From positions 55,597 to 119,596 of the forward strand of contig CAZPLO010000002.1 of the NCBI GenBank assembly GCA_964587725.1: a stretch of DNA of 64,000 nucleotides, read 5' to 3'. Shown here piece by piece: positions 49,713 to 55,222 of the stretch (position 1 is the first letter of the stretch; each line of letters begins with the position of its first letter). A program made the translations under genes and the position numbers. The notes below the pieces were generated by a model. It searched no databases, had not been told where the DNA came from, and worked only from the letters and a program-made list of their open reading frames with translations. Source of the stretch: an uncultured archaeon. GTDB taxonomy: Archaea > Altiarchaeota > Altiarchaeia > IMC4 > SCGC-AAA252-I15.

Positions 49713-50272
49713 AGTCGCTGAAACAGGTTCTTTCGGAGAATAAACGGCTGTTCGTGGCGGCGGCGGCCGCATTCCTCGTCGGGGTTCCGGCGGGAATGCT
49801 AGCCTATCCTCTGGTGGAGGACCAGCTTCCAGCCCTGCTGGAGGAGGCGTTCGGGGACGTCATGGACGGCTCCACCCTCGACGTTGTCGTTAAGGTGTTT
49901 CTGAGGAACACGTCCGCGTCCCTTATCATGTTGTTCCTGGGCATGACTGTCTTGTTGGCGGTGGCTTCACTGTTCCTGAACGGCTTCGTCGTGGGGTTGG
50001 TGTTCATGCTGTCGCTGTCCAAGGGCCTGGGGTTGTCCACCATCTTTCTGGGGGTGGCCCCCCACGGCATCTTTGAACTGCCCGCGATATTCCTGTCCGT
50101 GGCTGCAGGCATCCGCGTGGGATTGGCGGTATTCCAATCCAAGGGCAGGCGGGTGGCGGCGGCGTCGCAGGCTATACGGGAGGCCGCCGCAGTCTACCTC
50201 ACCGTGGTCCTGCCTCTTCTGGCGGTGGCGGCCGCGGTCGAAGTCCTGGTTTCCCTGGCGTTGGTCAAGTAG
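49709..50272 (+). CDS. SpoIIM-family membrane protein
   Basis: FLRN, NGFVVG, PHGIFELPA, AAAVE motifs; start ATG 49709. Confidence 0.88.
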   Translation: MKSLKQVLSENKRLFVAAAAAFLVGVPAGMLAYPLVEDQLPALLEEAFGDVMDGSTLDVVVKVFLRNTSASLIMLFLGMTVLLAVASLFLNGFVVGLVFMLSLSKGLGLSTIFLGVAPHGIFELPAIFLSVAAGIRVGLAVFQSKGRRVAAASQAIREAAAVYLTVVLPLLAVAAAVEVLVSLALVK

Positions 50273-50669
50273 CCTTCAATGTAGAGAGCTTGCAGTTAAT
50301 GACCCCCCGTATGGCGCTCAAGCCCCCGTAGAGTTTCTGGATTTCAGTGGATGAGCCCTCAACAATCAACACCTCTATGCACAGGCTGTGTGTGATGTGG
50401 CTGTGCATGGTCGAACGGATGTTGTGTTCGAAGCCGTGCTGCAGGTCCACCAGTCTGCCGTTGACGTCCGGCACGTGGTGGTCGTACAGGTAGGATATGG
50501 TTCCCATCAATTCGCAGTCTTCAACTTTTTTCTGTGTTATGAACTCGGTCACCGCGTCCCCCAATGCTTTGCTCCTGTTCCGGTACCCCAGTTCCGCTAT
50601 GACGGCGTCAAAGCGGTCCAACAGACTTTTGGGCAGTGAAACCCCGAATCGTGTCACCCGCTCCACCAT
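50265..50669 (-). CDS. nikR: Nickel-responsive regulator NikR
   Basis: RHH domain RFGVSL...GYRNRSKA; YDHH, QH, H-x-H and C Ni ligands. Confidence 0.92.
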   Translation of the reverse strand: MVERVTRFGVSLPKSLLDRFDAVIAELGYRNRSKALGDAVTEFITQKKVEDCELMGTISYLYDHHVPDVNGRLVDLQHGFEHNIRSTMHSHITHSLCIEVLIVEGSSTEIQKLYGGLSAIRGVINCKLSTLKAT

Positions 50670-50670
50670 G

Positions 50671-50704
50671 TTGTGTCACCACACTTATATAACATGTGAC
50701 ACAA
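50671..50704. promoter_or_regulatory. Probable NikR operator enclosing a TATA box (TTGTGTCAC-N16-GTGACACAA)
   Basis: Perfect 9-bp inverted repeat with 16-bp spacer containing TTATATAA (50685-50692), between divergent nikR and 50724. Confidence 0.75.
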
Positions 50705-50723
50705 TACTAAAAAAGGTGTTACT

Positions 50724-51008
50724 ATGTGGCTGATTACATCCTCTGCGGCGGCGGTCATCGTAACCGCCATATGGGCTTATGCTCCGAAGAAATACAGGCT
50801 AAGCAACCTGGCGTTGATGCTGTGGGGCCTCACCCTCCTCGTGTTCGTGGACCACGTTCTGGGCTACGAGGGCGGGCCGTTCATCGAAATGGAAACCGAC
50901 GGACTCATCGAGAACGGGACGGTGTTGGGGGTTGCCATGCTTATCCCGGTCTTTATAATCTGGGAAATCCAGTTAGTAATCTCAAAAATCAAAAACGAGG
51001 TAAGTTAA
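50724..51008 (+). CDS. Small 3-TM membrane protein A (NikR-divergent)
   Basis: 94 aa hydrophobic; paralog of the next gene. Confidence 0.8.
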   Translation: MWLITSSAAAVIVTAIWAYAPKKYRLSNLALMLWGLTLLVFVDHVLGYEGGPFIEMETDGLIENGTVLGVAMLIPVFIIWEIQLVISKIKNEVS

Positions 51009-51009
51009 G

Positions 51010-51339
51010 ATGGCGTGTTTTACAGCACCCGCCGCCGCGGCGGCGGTGACGACAGTGTTCAGGAATAAGATACCGGCTAAGTACCACATCGAATGGTTCA
51101 ACGCCCTCGTATGGGGCGGCAGCGCAGGCCTGCTTCTAGAACATTTGGCCAGCGGCGAAATAGTCCCCTACCCGCCGTTCCTCACCGCGATGGCGTCTCC
51201 CGCCGAAACAGCGGTGATGGTGGCTGAGATAATTTCCATAGGGGTGCCGATGCTTCTCGCATGCGCCACCGTGTGGGCTGTCATGGTCGTAGCCGTTAAC
51301 AGGATAGGGCAGTCGGCGAAGACCGTGCAGACCGCGTGA
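51010..51339 (+). CDS. Small 3-TM membrane protein B (N-terminal MACF)
   Basis: 109 aa; GAGGT RBS; WGG...LEH...GE..P.PPFLTAM. Confidence 0.8.
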   Translation: MACFTAPAAAAAVTTVFRNKIPAKYHIEWFNALVWGGSAGLLLEHLASGEIVPYPPFLTAMASPAETAVMVAEIISIGVPMLLACATVWAVMVVAVNRIGQSAKTVQTA

Positions 51340-51397: not shown

Positions 51398-52276
51398 ATG
51401 GATTCAGAGGCGGAAGACTCGGGGAGCGTGTCCCTGGAGGAGTTCATAACCTCCAACTGGCAGATACTCACCATATTCGGGGTGTTCGCAGGCATAACAA
51501 ACTACATGAGCGGCCTGGGGAGTACCTGGCTGGTGACATCAGGGGTTCTACTCACGTTCATCGTGGGGTTGGAGATACTGCAGCTGCTCCTGAGGATAAA
51601 AAACCGCAGCATCACGTTGAACGCGTTCACAGTGTTGTCGGTGTTGTTTATCGTGTTGTTCGCGGGCTTCATATACTCGCAGCATTTATCCGACATGCTG
51701 GAGGGCTTCGGACTCGCCGTCTACCCCTGGGTGAACCAACACCATGTGCTGCTGCTGCGCACCATATTCTTCGCATCCATTATGGTGGTGCTGCTGGGCC
51801 TCTACCGCCACCTCCGCTCAGCGGTCACCGCGGCGTTGAAGATGCTGGGCAGGGACAAGGTTATTATGGCGGGGTTCCTGTCCACGGTTGTGCTCGCAGC
51901 TGCAGGAGTCGTAGTCCTCGCATTCCTCAGCCTCGCACCCGAAGGCACGGTGCCGGCTGAGACTACCACGACCACGTTGGAGGCTCCGACGACAACCACG
52001 TCTTCAACCACGACCTCAACCACCGTCACGACGACCTCATCAACCCTCCCTCCTACAGCCTGCACCACAAACAGCGACTGCGGCAATCAGACGTCAGAGA
52101 GAATATGCTACCGCGGCGACGTCTACGTCCAGGTGACTACGCCCCTCTGCCAGCGCCCGGGCACACCCGAAGCAAGGTGCGTGTACCGCACCCGCCTGGA
52201 AGGAGAAACCATAGCCCAGGAAGCCACGCCCGAGGAACGCTGCTCCCATGGATGTGAGAACGGGGAATGCATCTGA
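51398..52276 (+). CDS. Multi-TM membrane protein with Thr-rich linker and Cys-rich extracellular domain
   Basis: About five TMs, TTTT linker, six-Cys C-terminal module. Confidence 0.7.
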   Translation: MDSEAEDSGSVSLEEFITSNWQILTIFGVFAGITNYMSGLGSTWLVTSGVLLTFIVGLEILQLLLRIKNRSITLNAFTVLSVLFIVLFAGFIYSQHLSDMLEGFGLAVYPWVNQHHVLLLRTIFFASIMVVLLGLYRHLRSAVTAALKMLGRDKVIMAGFLSTVVLAAAGVVVLAFLSLAPEGTVPAETTTTTLEAPTTTTSSTTTSTTVTTTSSTLPPTACTTNSDCGNQTSERICYRGDVYVQVTTPLCQRPGTPEARCVYRTRLEGETIAQEATPEERCSHGCENGECI

Positions 52277-52685: not shown

Positions 52686-53111
52686 ATGGAATATAACAAC
52701 AAAGTCGGCAGGCCCAAGTGCCTGCGCAAAGTCCAGGAAACCCCGGAATTCAACTACTTCAAACCCAGGGGCATCCCGGTGACCGAACTGGATTCGATAA
52801 GACTTAAGGTAGAGGAACTGGAGGCCATGAAGATGGTGTGCTATGACGGGTTAAGCCGTGTGGAGGCTGCTGAACAGATGGGCATATCCCCCAGGACGCT
52901 GGGGAGAGAACTGAACTCGGGTCTGGTGAAAGTGGTTGACGCCCTTTTGAACGGAAAGGCTATCGAAATAAGTGGCGGATACTATGTGTCAGAGGGGGAA
53001 ATCGTTTTCCGATGCCTGAACGAAGGACACCAGTGGAAGGCCGACAAACTCATGGGCAAACCACTGGAATGCCCTGAATGCGGAAGCCAAAGTATCACGA
53101 AAGTGGGATGA
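52686..53111 (+). CDS. DUF134 (UPF0251) DNA-binding protein with C-terminal zinc ribbon
   Basis: GRPK..R, YFKPRG, EELEA, AAEQMGIS..T..R, AIEISGG, C..EGH.W...CPECGS. Confidence 0.9.
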   Translation: MEYNNKVGRPKCLRKVQETPEFNYFKPRGIPVTELDSIRLKVEELEAMKMVCYDGLSRVEAAEQMGISPRTLGRELNSGLVKVVDALLNGKAIEISGGYYVSEGEIVFRCLNEGHQWKADKLMGKPLECPECGSQSITKVG

Positions 53112-53759: not shown

Positions 53760-54503
53760 TTGAGTACACTAGCATGGGTTATGGGAGGCACGCTCGCCAT
53801 GAGTTTTCTGGCGTTCACCGGAGTGGCCGCCCTGTCGTTGAGGGAGAGGACGCTGAAGAAAATACTTTTGCCTCTGGTTGCGTTTTCAGCCGGTGCGCTG
53901 CTGGGCGGAGCGTTCCTGCACCTGATACCCGAAACAACCGCCAAAAGAGGGTCGGATGTGTCAATGTTCATCTGGGTTCTGGTCGGATTCTCCATATTCT
54001 TCCTGATGGAGCAGTTCCTCCACTGGCACCACTGCCATAAGGTGCCGTCGGAGCATAGAAGGCCTGTAACCTACCTGATTCTACTGGCTGACGGACTGCA
54101 CAACTTCATCGGGGGATTGGCTATAGGGGGCAGCTTCATGGTCAGCGTTAAACTAGGGTTGGTGACCTGGATTGCGTGCGCCGCCCACGAAATCCCCCAG
54201 GAAATGGGAGACTTCGGAGTACTGGTCCATGGCGGCTGGGAGAAGAAGAAGGCGTTGTGGTTTAACTTCCTGTCAGCCCTCACAATAGTCCCCGGGGGAC
54301 TGCTGGTATACCTTGTGTCACCCACCATCGACACCACCTTCCTGCTGCCGTTCGCCGCGGGAAACTTCATCTACATAGCATCCAGCGACCTGATACCTGA
54401 GGTGAAGCACGGGGAACTGAGGAAAGGCCTGCTTCACTTCACCGCCTTCGTATCTGGCATACTGCTGTTACTGGCAGTGAAACTGGTTTTCGGAGGCGGA
54501 TAA
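53760..54503 (+). CDS. ZIP family metal transporter
   Basis: FLHLIPE, HWHHCH loop, DGLHNF, AHEIPQEMGDF, ASSDLIPE. Confidence 0.93.
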   Translation: MSTLAWVMGGTLAMSFLAFTGVAALSLRERTLKKILLPLVAFSAGALLGGAFLHLIPETTAKRGSDVSMFIWVLVGFSIFFLMEQFLHWHHCHKVPSEHRRPVTYLILLADGLHNFIGGLAIGGSFMVSVKLGLVTWIACAAHEIPQEMGDFGVLVHGGWEKKKALWFNFLSALTIVPGGLLVYLVSPTIDTTFLLPFAAGNFIYIASSDLIPEVKHGELRKGLLHFTAFVSGILLLLAVKLVFGGG

Positions 54504-55222
54504 TGGGTGTGCTAACAATCATTTCATTGATTTTCGCCGGACAGACGGTGGGGGCGCTCACCGGGTTAATCTGGAAGCCGGGGGAGAAGTTTCTCCGTCT
54601 CTCCCTTTCTTTCGCCGCAAGTATGATGGTGGGAATCTCGCTACTGCAGTTGGTGCCCGAAGCTCTAGGTCTTGTTTCAGCCGAGGTCGCGGTCGCGGCT
54701 TTTTTCTCTGGCGTGCTCATCATGTCGGCCATCAACTGGGTTATCCCGCACATGCATCCGGGGTTCGGCAGAATGGATTCGCTACAGAAAACCGCTTTAA
54801 TGCTCACAGTGGGAATAGCATTGCATAACCTGCCTGAAGGCCTGGCGATAGGTTCGGGTTTCGCCGTCACGGGTTCGCTGGGGCTTGTGGTCGCGTTGGG
54901 GATAGCGGTTCAGGACGTCCCCGAGAACATAGCAACCATAATCCCATTGTATGCTGTGACCAAAAGCAGGGTTAAATCCTTTGCCATAACGTCTCTGACC
55001 ATAATGTTCGAGTTAGCGGGCTTCATCGTCGCCTATTTCATACTAAAAGACGTCTCCCCGGGGATGCTGGGGGGTTCGTTGGCTATGGCGGCTGGGTTCA
55101 TGACGCACATATCATTCCACGAGCTGATACCAGAAGCACGGATAAGAGAATGCCCTGCGGCTTCCGCAGCAAGCATCTTATTGGGGCTGGCGTGTGTGAT
55201 GTTAACGGGTTTGTTGCACTAG
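54503..55222 (+). CDS. ZIP family metal transporter (ZupT-like)
   Basis: LHNLPEGLAIG, QDVPE, AAGFM..IS..ELIP. Confidence 0.9.
   Translation: MGVLTIISLIFAGQTVGALTGLIWKPGEKFLRLSLSFAASMMVGISLLQLVPEALGLVSAEVAVAAFFSGVLIMSAINWVIPHMHPGFGRMDSLQKTALMLTVGIALHNLPEGLAIGSGFAVTGSLGLVVALGIAVQDVPENIATIIPLYAVTKSRVKSFAITSLTIMFELAGFIVAYFILKDVSPGMLGGSLAMAAGFMTHISFHELIPEARIRECPAASAASILLGLACVMLTGLLH

Follow-up and report, generated by a model that had tools for sequence, protein, structure and literature searches.

A pair of small paralogous membrane proteins beside nikR in Altiarchaeota, a candidate nickel uptake system of a new family

The locus, its two genes and the predicted NikR operator

Here we describe two small genes, open reading frames (ORFs) A and B, that lie next to a divergent nikR gene in a 64-kb stretch of DNA from an uncultured archaeon (the window, by which we mean the whole stretch that was analysed), and whose products we propose as a candidate nickel uptake system. 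The host genome (G000) amounts to 1.56 Mb in 48 contigs and is 92% complete, and public records label the close relatives of both proteins as Candidatus Altiarchaeota. A search for sequencing runs listed four DNA entries, all from one study, and none of RNA. ORF A (50724..51008, + strand) encodes a small membrane protein of 94 amino acids (aa) with three hydrophobic helices, and ORF B (51010..51339, + strand), which carries GAGGT 8 nt upstream of its ATG, encodes a 109-aa paralogue of A. The gap between them is 1 bp, in keeping with an earlier interpretation made from the DNA letters without database searches (the sequence-only reading), which had described adjacent small ORFs for proteins with three transmembrane helices. 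This predicted architecture agrees with the hydrophobic stretches, the distribution of charges and the helices of AlphaFold2 (AF2) models, all judged by eye; in the model of B, with a predicted local distance difference test (pLDDT) value of 89.9, the helices span residues 5-16, 27-47 and 64-108.

The sequence-only reading also held that the two ORFs align with each other, and comparisons at two levels confirm that A and B are real, adjacent and paralogous small membrane proteins. By BLASTP the two share 22% identity over 73 residues (E 9e-5), and when a 28-row alignment of A was compared with a 29-row alignment of B using hhalign, they matched over 81 columns, almost their full length, with a probability of 96.2% and an E-value of 2.7e-9. 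The fused or extended rows P0037, P0060 and P0066 were taken out before this comparison, as the tail of the fused P0037 had matched A. In a joint 39-row alignment Gly35, His44, Gly69 and Trp80 (A numbering) are invariant across both families, with Glu49, Phe53 and Met72 being nearly so.

We found that family A possesses invariant LMLWG, Asp43-His44, GYEGG, Gly60, Gly69, Met72, Pro75 and Trp80 positions as well as an acidic loop, and that family B keeps Trp29, a Gly36-Gly37 pair in helix 2, Glu44-His45, Gly49-Glu50, the Pro56-Phe-Leu-Thr-Ala60 segment (PPFLTA), Met70, Glu73, Gly78 and Trp89. Two features that the earlier reading had singled out therefore recur beyond this locus, namely the (D/E)H pair of helix 2, which is invariant in both families (Asp43-His44 in A, Glu44-His45 in B), and the MAC start of one of the proteins, since in family B Met1 is invariant and Ala2, Cys3 and Phe4 are present in at least 90% of members. 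In three wider sets of B-like relatives an M-x-C start was found in 127/147, 70/73 and 114/116 proteins, those lacking it mostly having other called starts, and the (D/E)H pair in 146/147, 73/73 and 116/116, respectively. For A, 516 relatives were found, and the best 120 of these, which are listed at 63-100% identity and include Altiarchaeota, Thermoplasmata and Diapherotrites records, all have the DH motif and in no case a Cys within their first five residues. That the invariant residues are of the metal-ligand type (Cys, His, Asp and Glu) favours a role in nickel handling.

As to topology, the loop after helix 1 is basic in both proteins (PKKYR in A and RNKIPAKYH in B), the C-termini are basic too, and the loop after helix 2 is acidic, with no Lys or Arg in either A or B. 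By the positive-inside rule this suggests three spans with the N-terminus out and the C-terminus in, which would place the (D/E)H pair, the acidic loop and the N-terminal Cys of B at the outer face of the membrane.

The divergent gene, 54 bp from ORF A, is nikR (50265..50669, - strand), encoding a ribbon-helix-helix nickel-responsive repressor of 134 aa. Its identity, which had been asserted from the letters, is unambiguous: the protein exceeds the cut-offs of both the Pfam NikR_C family (E 4.4e-26, 91.3 bits, cut-off 22) and the NCBIfam NikR equivalog NF003381 (E 1.3e-35, 122.5 bits, cut-off 105), its RHH_1 score of 20.2 bits falls just below the cut-off of 20.5, and it is the sole NikR_C match in the host genome.

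In the 54 bp that separate nikR from ORF A there are three GTRNYAC-type half-sites, namely GTGTCAC (50673-79), GTGACAC (50696-702) and GTGTTAC (50716-22). The first and second form an inverted repeat (50671..50704) of the composition TTGTGTCAC-N16-GTGACACAA, with perfect 9-nt arms 16 nt apart, and in its spacer lies the self-complementary TATA-like element TTATATAA (50685-50692), which is probably the archaeal TATA box; the host being an archaeon, a sigma-70 promoter scan is irrelevant to this region. The core GTGTCAC-N16-GTGACAC is identical in the related loci L001 and L005 and has one base changed in L020, L021 and L026. The second and third half-sites form a predicted NikR box of the 'reversed' type, GTGACAC-N13-GTGTTAC (50696..50722), which ends 1 nt 5' of the ATG of ORF A. 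A 'reversed' NikR signal, GTAACAC-[N13]-GTGTTAC, was derived for nickel transporter operons in the cited part of Rodionov et al. (PMC545781), and our box departs from it by 1 mismatch. It is the sole match in the window, where 0.02 are expected, and the best match in the 1.56-Mb genome, the five others having 2 mismatches and GC-rich spacers. Moreover, sites with at most 2 mismatches were present in 37 of the 77 non-identical regions of 120 bp that precede homologous pairs, as compared with a mean of 0.09 and a maximum of 2 in 200 shuffles of these regions, and related variants (e.g. GTAGCAC-N13-GTGCTAC and GTAATAT-N14-GTATTAC, seen by eye and unscored) occur in many of the other upstream regions. 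An operator that lies over the promoter and the start region implies repression by Ni-NikR, as in known uptake systems, and we infer that the A-B operon is bound and repressed in this manner. Two further observations concern the nikR side of the region. The string ATCGTGTCAC (50648-50657), which falls in the nikR codons for the conserved N-terminus (RVTRFG), shows 90% complementarity to the central half-site (50696-50705), and a GTGTCAC/GTGTTAC string recurs at the coding start of nikR in many loci, where it could be either a further half-site or a coding coincidence.

An unannotated superfamily and its genomic surroundings

The sequence-only reading recognised no family for the pair, and neither did our searches of Pfam, NCBIfam, PDB sequences and Foldseek. 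No Pfam (E <=0.1) or NCBIfam family was matched by A or B, and a Pfam search at E <=10 with 33 longer relatives and 39 aligned members returned only scattered sub-threshold matches to Vpu, Bestrophin-like, DUF6358 and MerC, the last in 3/39 members and non-significant (best E 0.058). With regard to known nickel and cobalt families, CbiM (PF01891) matched neither A or B at E <=0.1 nor any of the 39 members at E <=10; NicO (PF03824) gave no hidden Markov model (HMM) match in the 39 members (E <=10) or in the window proteins, A and B being only 94 and 109 aa long; HupE_UreJ (PF04955) gave no HMMER match in the 39 members (E <=10) or in the window proteins, in a sequence-versus-HMM comparison with which remote kinship would still be compatible; and CbiN (PF02553), PDGLE (PF13190) and CbiQ had no match in A, B or the 39 members. 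A profile search of PDB sequences gave no match, nor did a Foldseek search of the B model against the PDB at E <=0.001, and in the ESM Atlas there were 'hypothetical protein' clusters only. We also used the AF2 model of a natural B-A fusion, P0343 (pLDDT 80.9), which was built without A rows because MAFFT had put these on the B half. In VIA-align wide its best match (Z 7.9) was to bundles of the G-protein-coupled receptor type, a value within the noise range for helical models, and the matches as a whole were unspecific helical bundles, with no transporter family and no S component standing out. In the part of the literature that was covered, no description of such a pair was found.

The superfamily to which A and B belong is nonetheless large, and it is unannotated and comes in two-gene, single-gene and fused B-A forms. 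An exhaustive profile search returned 569 clusters (at 50% identity) at E <=1e-3 and 339 at E <=1e-10, and a word-based search with a fused member returned 2380 proteins at E <=1e-5 among 8000 candidates, many of them B-type proteins of about 134 aa with a long charged loop and Chloroflexi, Anaerolineae, Thermoleophilia or Actinobacteria labels. A few stray automatic labels aside, the database names of these proteins read 'hypothetical protein'. A sample of 80 metagenome loci, found with the A-family alignment as the joint alignment is too divergent for such a scan, was used to survey the two-gene form. In 72 of these loci A and B share a strand and are separated by 1-19 nt, the order being A-B in 59 and B-A in 13. 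A stands alone in seven, in all of which the contig ends 0-139 bp beyond it, and in one (L058) A was missed by ORF calling, though present in the alignment scan. The natural fusions consist of B followed by A, and most of them lack the first helix of A (P0197, P0198, P0199, P0224, P0250, P0256, P0269, P0037 and P0342), with P0343 retaining it. That such fusions exist argues that A and B form a two-protein unit; a direct prediction of the A-B complex scored 0.17, the predictor's mark being 0.32, a value that speaks neither for nor against binding. Two single-gene members were found, one of 102 aa in genome G051 (L102:2299-3210), where it lies directly 5' of hypA-hypC, with HycI and a [NiFe]-hydrogenase encoded 2-3 kb away, and one of 96 aa in G004 (L103:2163-2453), where it is divergent from nikR. 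Both join a B-type N-terminus (M-x-C-Y, as M-V/T-C-Y) to the A-type VDH/IDH motif, a mixture which suggests that the ancestor of the pair was a homodimer.

There are also hints that the family has spread horizontally, in that A is at least 63% identical across phyla among its 120 listed relatives, and in that the B-A pair of a Patescibacteria genome (L009:3311-5000) lies just 3' of a phage-type integrase with a tRNA-like sequence, recognised by eye, between them. Together these suggest gene transfer.

The neighbourhood of the pair repeatedly involves nickel. NikR is encoded in 54 of the 80 metagenome loci, within 500 bp in 52 (and in 48/73 loci once identical pairs are removed), and in a de novo clustering of neighbours it formed the largest cluster, with 49 loci, 42 of which have it at the divergent -1 position. 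In four loci nikR lies 3' of the pair on the same strand, and on genome contigs a divergent nikR was found in 4/5 of the Altiarchaeota loci having upstream sequence. Neighbours were identified by Pfam searches with cluster representatives and counted by phmmer. LarC is found in 12 of the 80 loci, always within 500 bp, together with LarB (10), a LarE-like PP-loop protein (8), HypA (10) and HypC (3); DUF1858 (10), cupin (7), ZIP (5), FmdE (4) and ABC-3 (4) proteins likewise recur. The recurrence of nikR, Lar and Hyp genes is thus the outcome of the neighbourhood analysis by which the nickel assignment was to be checked.

A further line of evidence comes from the distribution of the pair among 54 genomes of the phylum, each at least 70% complete. 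The pair is present in 21 of these, and NikR in 41, including 19 of the 21. Nickel need is indicated by a [NiFe]-hydrogenase match in 39/54 genomes, among them 20 of the 21 with the pair, the sole match of the remaining one (G016) being below the cut-off; the host genome itself encodes two [NiFe]-hydrogenase large subunits. CbiM/NikM exceeds the Pfam cut-off in 12 of the 54 genomes and never together with the pair (0/54). Fisher's exact test, applied to the ten genomes with strong CbiM matches, gives p 0.004, a value that overstates the case because related genomes are not independent. NicO was absent from all 54 genomes scanned, and in the 92% complete host genome CbiM, NicO, HupE_UreJ and SBP_bac_5, the last standing for NikA-type proteins, had no match. 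In G041, of the same family and another genus, nikR faces nikM (CbiM, 1.7e-63), PDGLE and cbiQ, i.e. the very slot that A and B occupy here. Its NikR is 49% identical to that of the window, and GTGTTAC/GTAACAC half-sites lie between nikR and nikM. These observations indicate mutual exclusion of the pair and NikM/CbiM in the phylum, with the same slot beside nikR used by either.

Several neighbouring genes deserve description in their own right. In genus g16 the order is A-B, a lipoprotein-like ORF without family, and nikR; this ORF of 412-415 aa, on the same strand (L100:2289-3524 in G010 and L104:2415-3659 in G009), has no Pfam family and an N-terminus resembling a signal peptide with lipobox (…FFCGCAGNK…), and may be an extracytoplasmic nickel-binding partner. 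At L063:2213-2863 and in six other loci a 217-aa cupin-domain protein (Cupin_2/AraC_binding) often takes the divergent -1 position where nikR is missing, and may be an alternative regulator. Directly 3' of B in the window, at 51398-52276 (+), lies a 292-aa ORF whose product begins with several membrane helices, continues through a Thr-rich linker and ends in a Cys-rich domain. No family was assigned to it, a 'New_glue' match (0.0019) being spurious. Look-alikes of its N-terminus are encoded in both L003 and L005, at a distance of 1-1.3 kb from the pair, and in 0/80 metagenome loci. Beyond it a putative regulator of the DUF134 type, with a zinc ribbon (52686-53111, +), precedes two tandem ZIP transporter genes (53760-54503 and 54503-55222, +), which lie 2.4 kb downstream of the pair, and a small thioredoxin-like ORF, the whole span reaching to 55630 and making up a further metal module that adjoins the one for nickel. 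DUF134 occurs near the pair also in L001 and L007, and immediately beyond nikR on the related Altiarchaeota contig L001 (954-4211) a conserved cluster holds DUF134, two NifX-like Nitro_FeMo-Co proteins and two ATPases of the MinD/ParA type that carry 4Fe-4S domains.

Proposed nickel import and the competing explanations

Taken together, the operator, the neighbourhoods and the exclusion of NikM make it highly probable that A and B are a membrane pair of the NikR regulon serving nickel homeostasis. We further consider it somewhat probable that the pair is itself the importer of Ni(II), i.e. a NikR-repressed heteromeric uptake system of a new family, and this agrees with the sequence-only reading, which took the pair for a NikR-controlled, heteromeric nickel permease or sensor of a kind not described before and which is supported as far as sequence-based tests reach. 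In such a mechanism A and B would be transcribed together and would join in the membrane as a small heteromeric complex of about six helices, with the N-termini outside and the C-termini inside, that imports Ni(II) for nickel enzymes, these being the two [NiFe]-hydrogenases in the present host and also nickel-pincer (Lar) enzymes elsewhere. The metal path would be lined by the (D/E)H pair at the outer end of helix 2 in both subunits and by conserved Glu residues (that of GYE in A, and those of HGE and Glu73 in B), and the M-A-C-F N-terminus of B could offer its free amine and Cys thiolate as a nickel hook similar to that of NikM. When nickel is plentiful in the cell, Ni-loaded NikR would switch A-B off through an operator extending over both the TATA-like box and the 27 bp before the start codon of A. 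The assembly, topology, ligand set, transport direction and repression set out here are our deductions from the sequence features described above. As a general mechanism we can so far only tentatively propose that the pair founds a minimal, ATPase-free nickel-uptake family of three-helix proteins of about 100 aa acting as dimers, which would occur in homodimeric, heterodimeric and fused form, with an N-terminal amine/Cys hook and an intramembrane (D/E)H.

A number of observations weigh against the pair being a nickel importer. Structurally, helix 1 of B is short (about 12-17 residues, and about 12 in the AF2 model), and in the fusion P0343 helix 1 of A is retained behind the cytoplasmic C-terminus of B, an arrangement that misfits a membrane-spanning helix 1; in the AF2 model of this fusion the region with A helix 1 has a pLDDT of 53-69. 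Considering that six short helices would be a very small translocation unit, the pair could be a capture or accessory subunit. Within the phylum, G025 has the pair together with a sub-threshold CbiM-like match (21.1 bits), in each of the genera g10 and g18 the pair is found in one species and a weak CbiM match in another, and the host genome being 92% complete, its lack of a known transporter may be only apparent. With respect to neighbourhoods, 26 of the 80 metagenome loci are without NikR, some of them with several kb of flank. The family was present in just 4/201 sampled genomes of a large bacterial phylum. In the five loci of these genomes B always precedes A, NikR is absent from the surrounding 1.5 kb, and the neighbours are unrelated (ArsP_1, Cons_hypoth698, SPFH, LysE and an Uma2/HTH protein). 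A ZIP gene directly adjoins the pair in L007, ArsP_1 permeases occur in L004 and L008, Fur and ZIP in L009, and ArsR in some loci. The recurrence of ZIP, Fur, ArsR and ArsP_1 indicates that the metal or the role may vary between loci, or that the pair may assist another transporter.

The last of these possibilities leads to the most credible alternative to direct import, which we still regard as rather unlikely: the pair would belong to the nickel regulon without being the permease, and would instead act in capture or gating, as a chaperone-like accessory of another transporter, or as a membrane nickel sensor. Besides the small size of the proteins and the shortness of helix 1 of B, what speaks for such a role are the ZIP genes, found in 5/80 loci and twice in tandem downstream of the pair in the window, the ArsP_1 permeases downstream of the pair in both L004 and L008, and the precedent of NikN, NikL and CbiN, which the cited part of PMC2667541 describes as small accessory membrane proteins of nickel systems. 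Against it, the pair has no other membrane protein as a regular neighbour, the largest clusters other than NikR being the cytoplasmic LarC and LarB. Moreover, beside nikR the pair takes the place of the whole nikM-PDGLE-cbiQ set and not of a small subunit alone, and it excludes NikM across the 54 genomes.

That the pair instead serves metal tolerance, by exporting or sequestering nickel or some other metal, seems to us quite improbable. Small metal-handling membrane proteins do exist, e.g. the Mer proteins, and both the non-significant MerC matches and the HMA-domain protein and ArsR neighbours of single loci could be taken in this sense. The position of the operator, across the promoter and the start of A, nevertheless fits repression by Ni-NikR, which would shut an exporter off exactly when it is needed, the neighbours (Lar, Hyp and hydrogenase) are consumers of nickel, and the pair is exclusive with the importer NikM. 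A very improbable explanation, in our view, is that the pair is a split S component of an ABC importer of the energy-coupling factor (ECF) type, energised by EcfT and EcfAA' encoded elsewhere. The host genome has one CbiQ/EcfT gene with an adjoining double ABC ATPase and no S component beside it, A and B amount to about six helices and about 200 aa in sum, and the conserved N-terminus of B recalls that of NikM. CbiQ is nevertheless absent from 9 of the 21 genomes with the pair, including ones that are 97%, 93%, 93%, 93% and 91% complete, and from both Patescibacteria genomes that have it, so that no ECF module appears to be needed. In addition, neither CbiM nor any other S-component family was matched, and the predicted N-out topology is unlike that of classical S components. 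On the CbiQ distribution, an ECF S component was rejected as a general mechanism. Least probable of all is a membrane function unrelated to metals with an incidental nikR adjacency, for although the 26 of 80 loci without NikR and bacterial neighbours such as SPFH, LysE, Cons_hypoth698 and Uma2 would suit it, the NikR gene and box recur in distant lineages, the Lar/Hyp linkage recurs too, and it is Cys, His, Asp and Glu residues that are invariant.

Relation to known nickel systems and significance

If A and B do import nickel, how they compare with known systems is instructive. The S component of NikM/CbiM has roughly 220 aa and seven helices, and the N-terminus of NikM ligates Ni. Similar to NikM(N)QO/CbiMNQO, the pair has its genomic slot beside nikR, the same regulator and the same type of NikR box, and B shares with NikM a conserved extreme N-terminus. 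The pair differs in having no sequence match to CbiM, PDGLE or CbiQ, in consisting of two proteins of 94-109 aa, in an N-terminal motif of M-A-C-F as opposed to the M-H of NikM, and in its independence, judging from the CbiQ distribution, of an EcfT (CbiQ) module. NiCoT proteins (HoxN/NixA) are single chains of eight helices and HupE/UreJ proteins single chains of six, and a DH-containing signature is typical of both. Like these, the pair is proposed to take up nickel for hydrogenase free of an energy module and has an Asp/Glu-His pair inside a transmembrane helix; the H-X4-D-H signature of those proteins is absent, the residue five positions before Asp43 of A being Leu and that before Glu44 of B being Ala. 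To our knowledge, NikN, NikL and CbiN have two helices and always occur with NikM/CbiM. The pair, unlike these, is found where NikM is lacking, with neither PDGLE nor CbiN matched by A or B and no CbiM in the host genome. According to the cited part of PMC2667541, NikN, NikL and CbiN are small membrane proteins (about 100 aa) of nickel/cobalt uptake operons, a size that A and B share.

A possible earlier sighting of the family comes from Desulfotalea psychrophila, for which the cited part of Rodionov et al. 2004 (PMC545781) gives a two-gene cluster, '422176-177', with two reversed NikR boxes and the function '?'. Compared by description only, it resembles A-B as a hypothetical two-gene operon behind GTAACAC-[N13]-GTGTTAC boxes, and it may belong to the same family.

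Nickel is essential for hydrogenases, carbon monoxide dehydrogenase, urease, Lar enzymes and methanogenesis. The cited part of PMC2667541 counts 62 nickel-using bacteria without a recognisable nickel transporter and just three transporter families in archaea. If our interpretation is correct, a pair that stands in for NikMNQO would help to close this gap, and would be the missing importer of many Altiarchaeota, Thermoplasmata, DPANN archaea and Patescibacteria and of some anaerobic bacteria, organisms that use nickel enzymes yet lack every known transporter. It would also allow hundreds of 'hypothetical' genes to be better annotated, and, as one of the smallest metal-transport units known, the A-B pair would be an attractive subject for studies of structure and mechanism.

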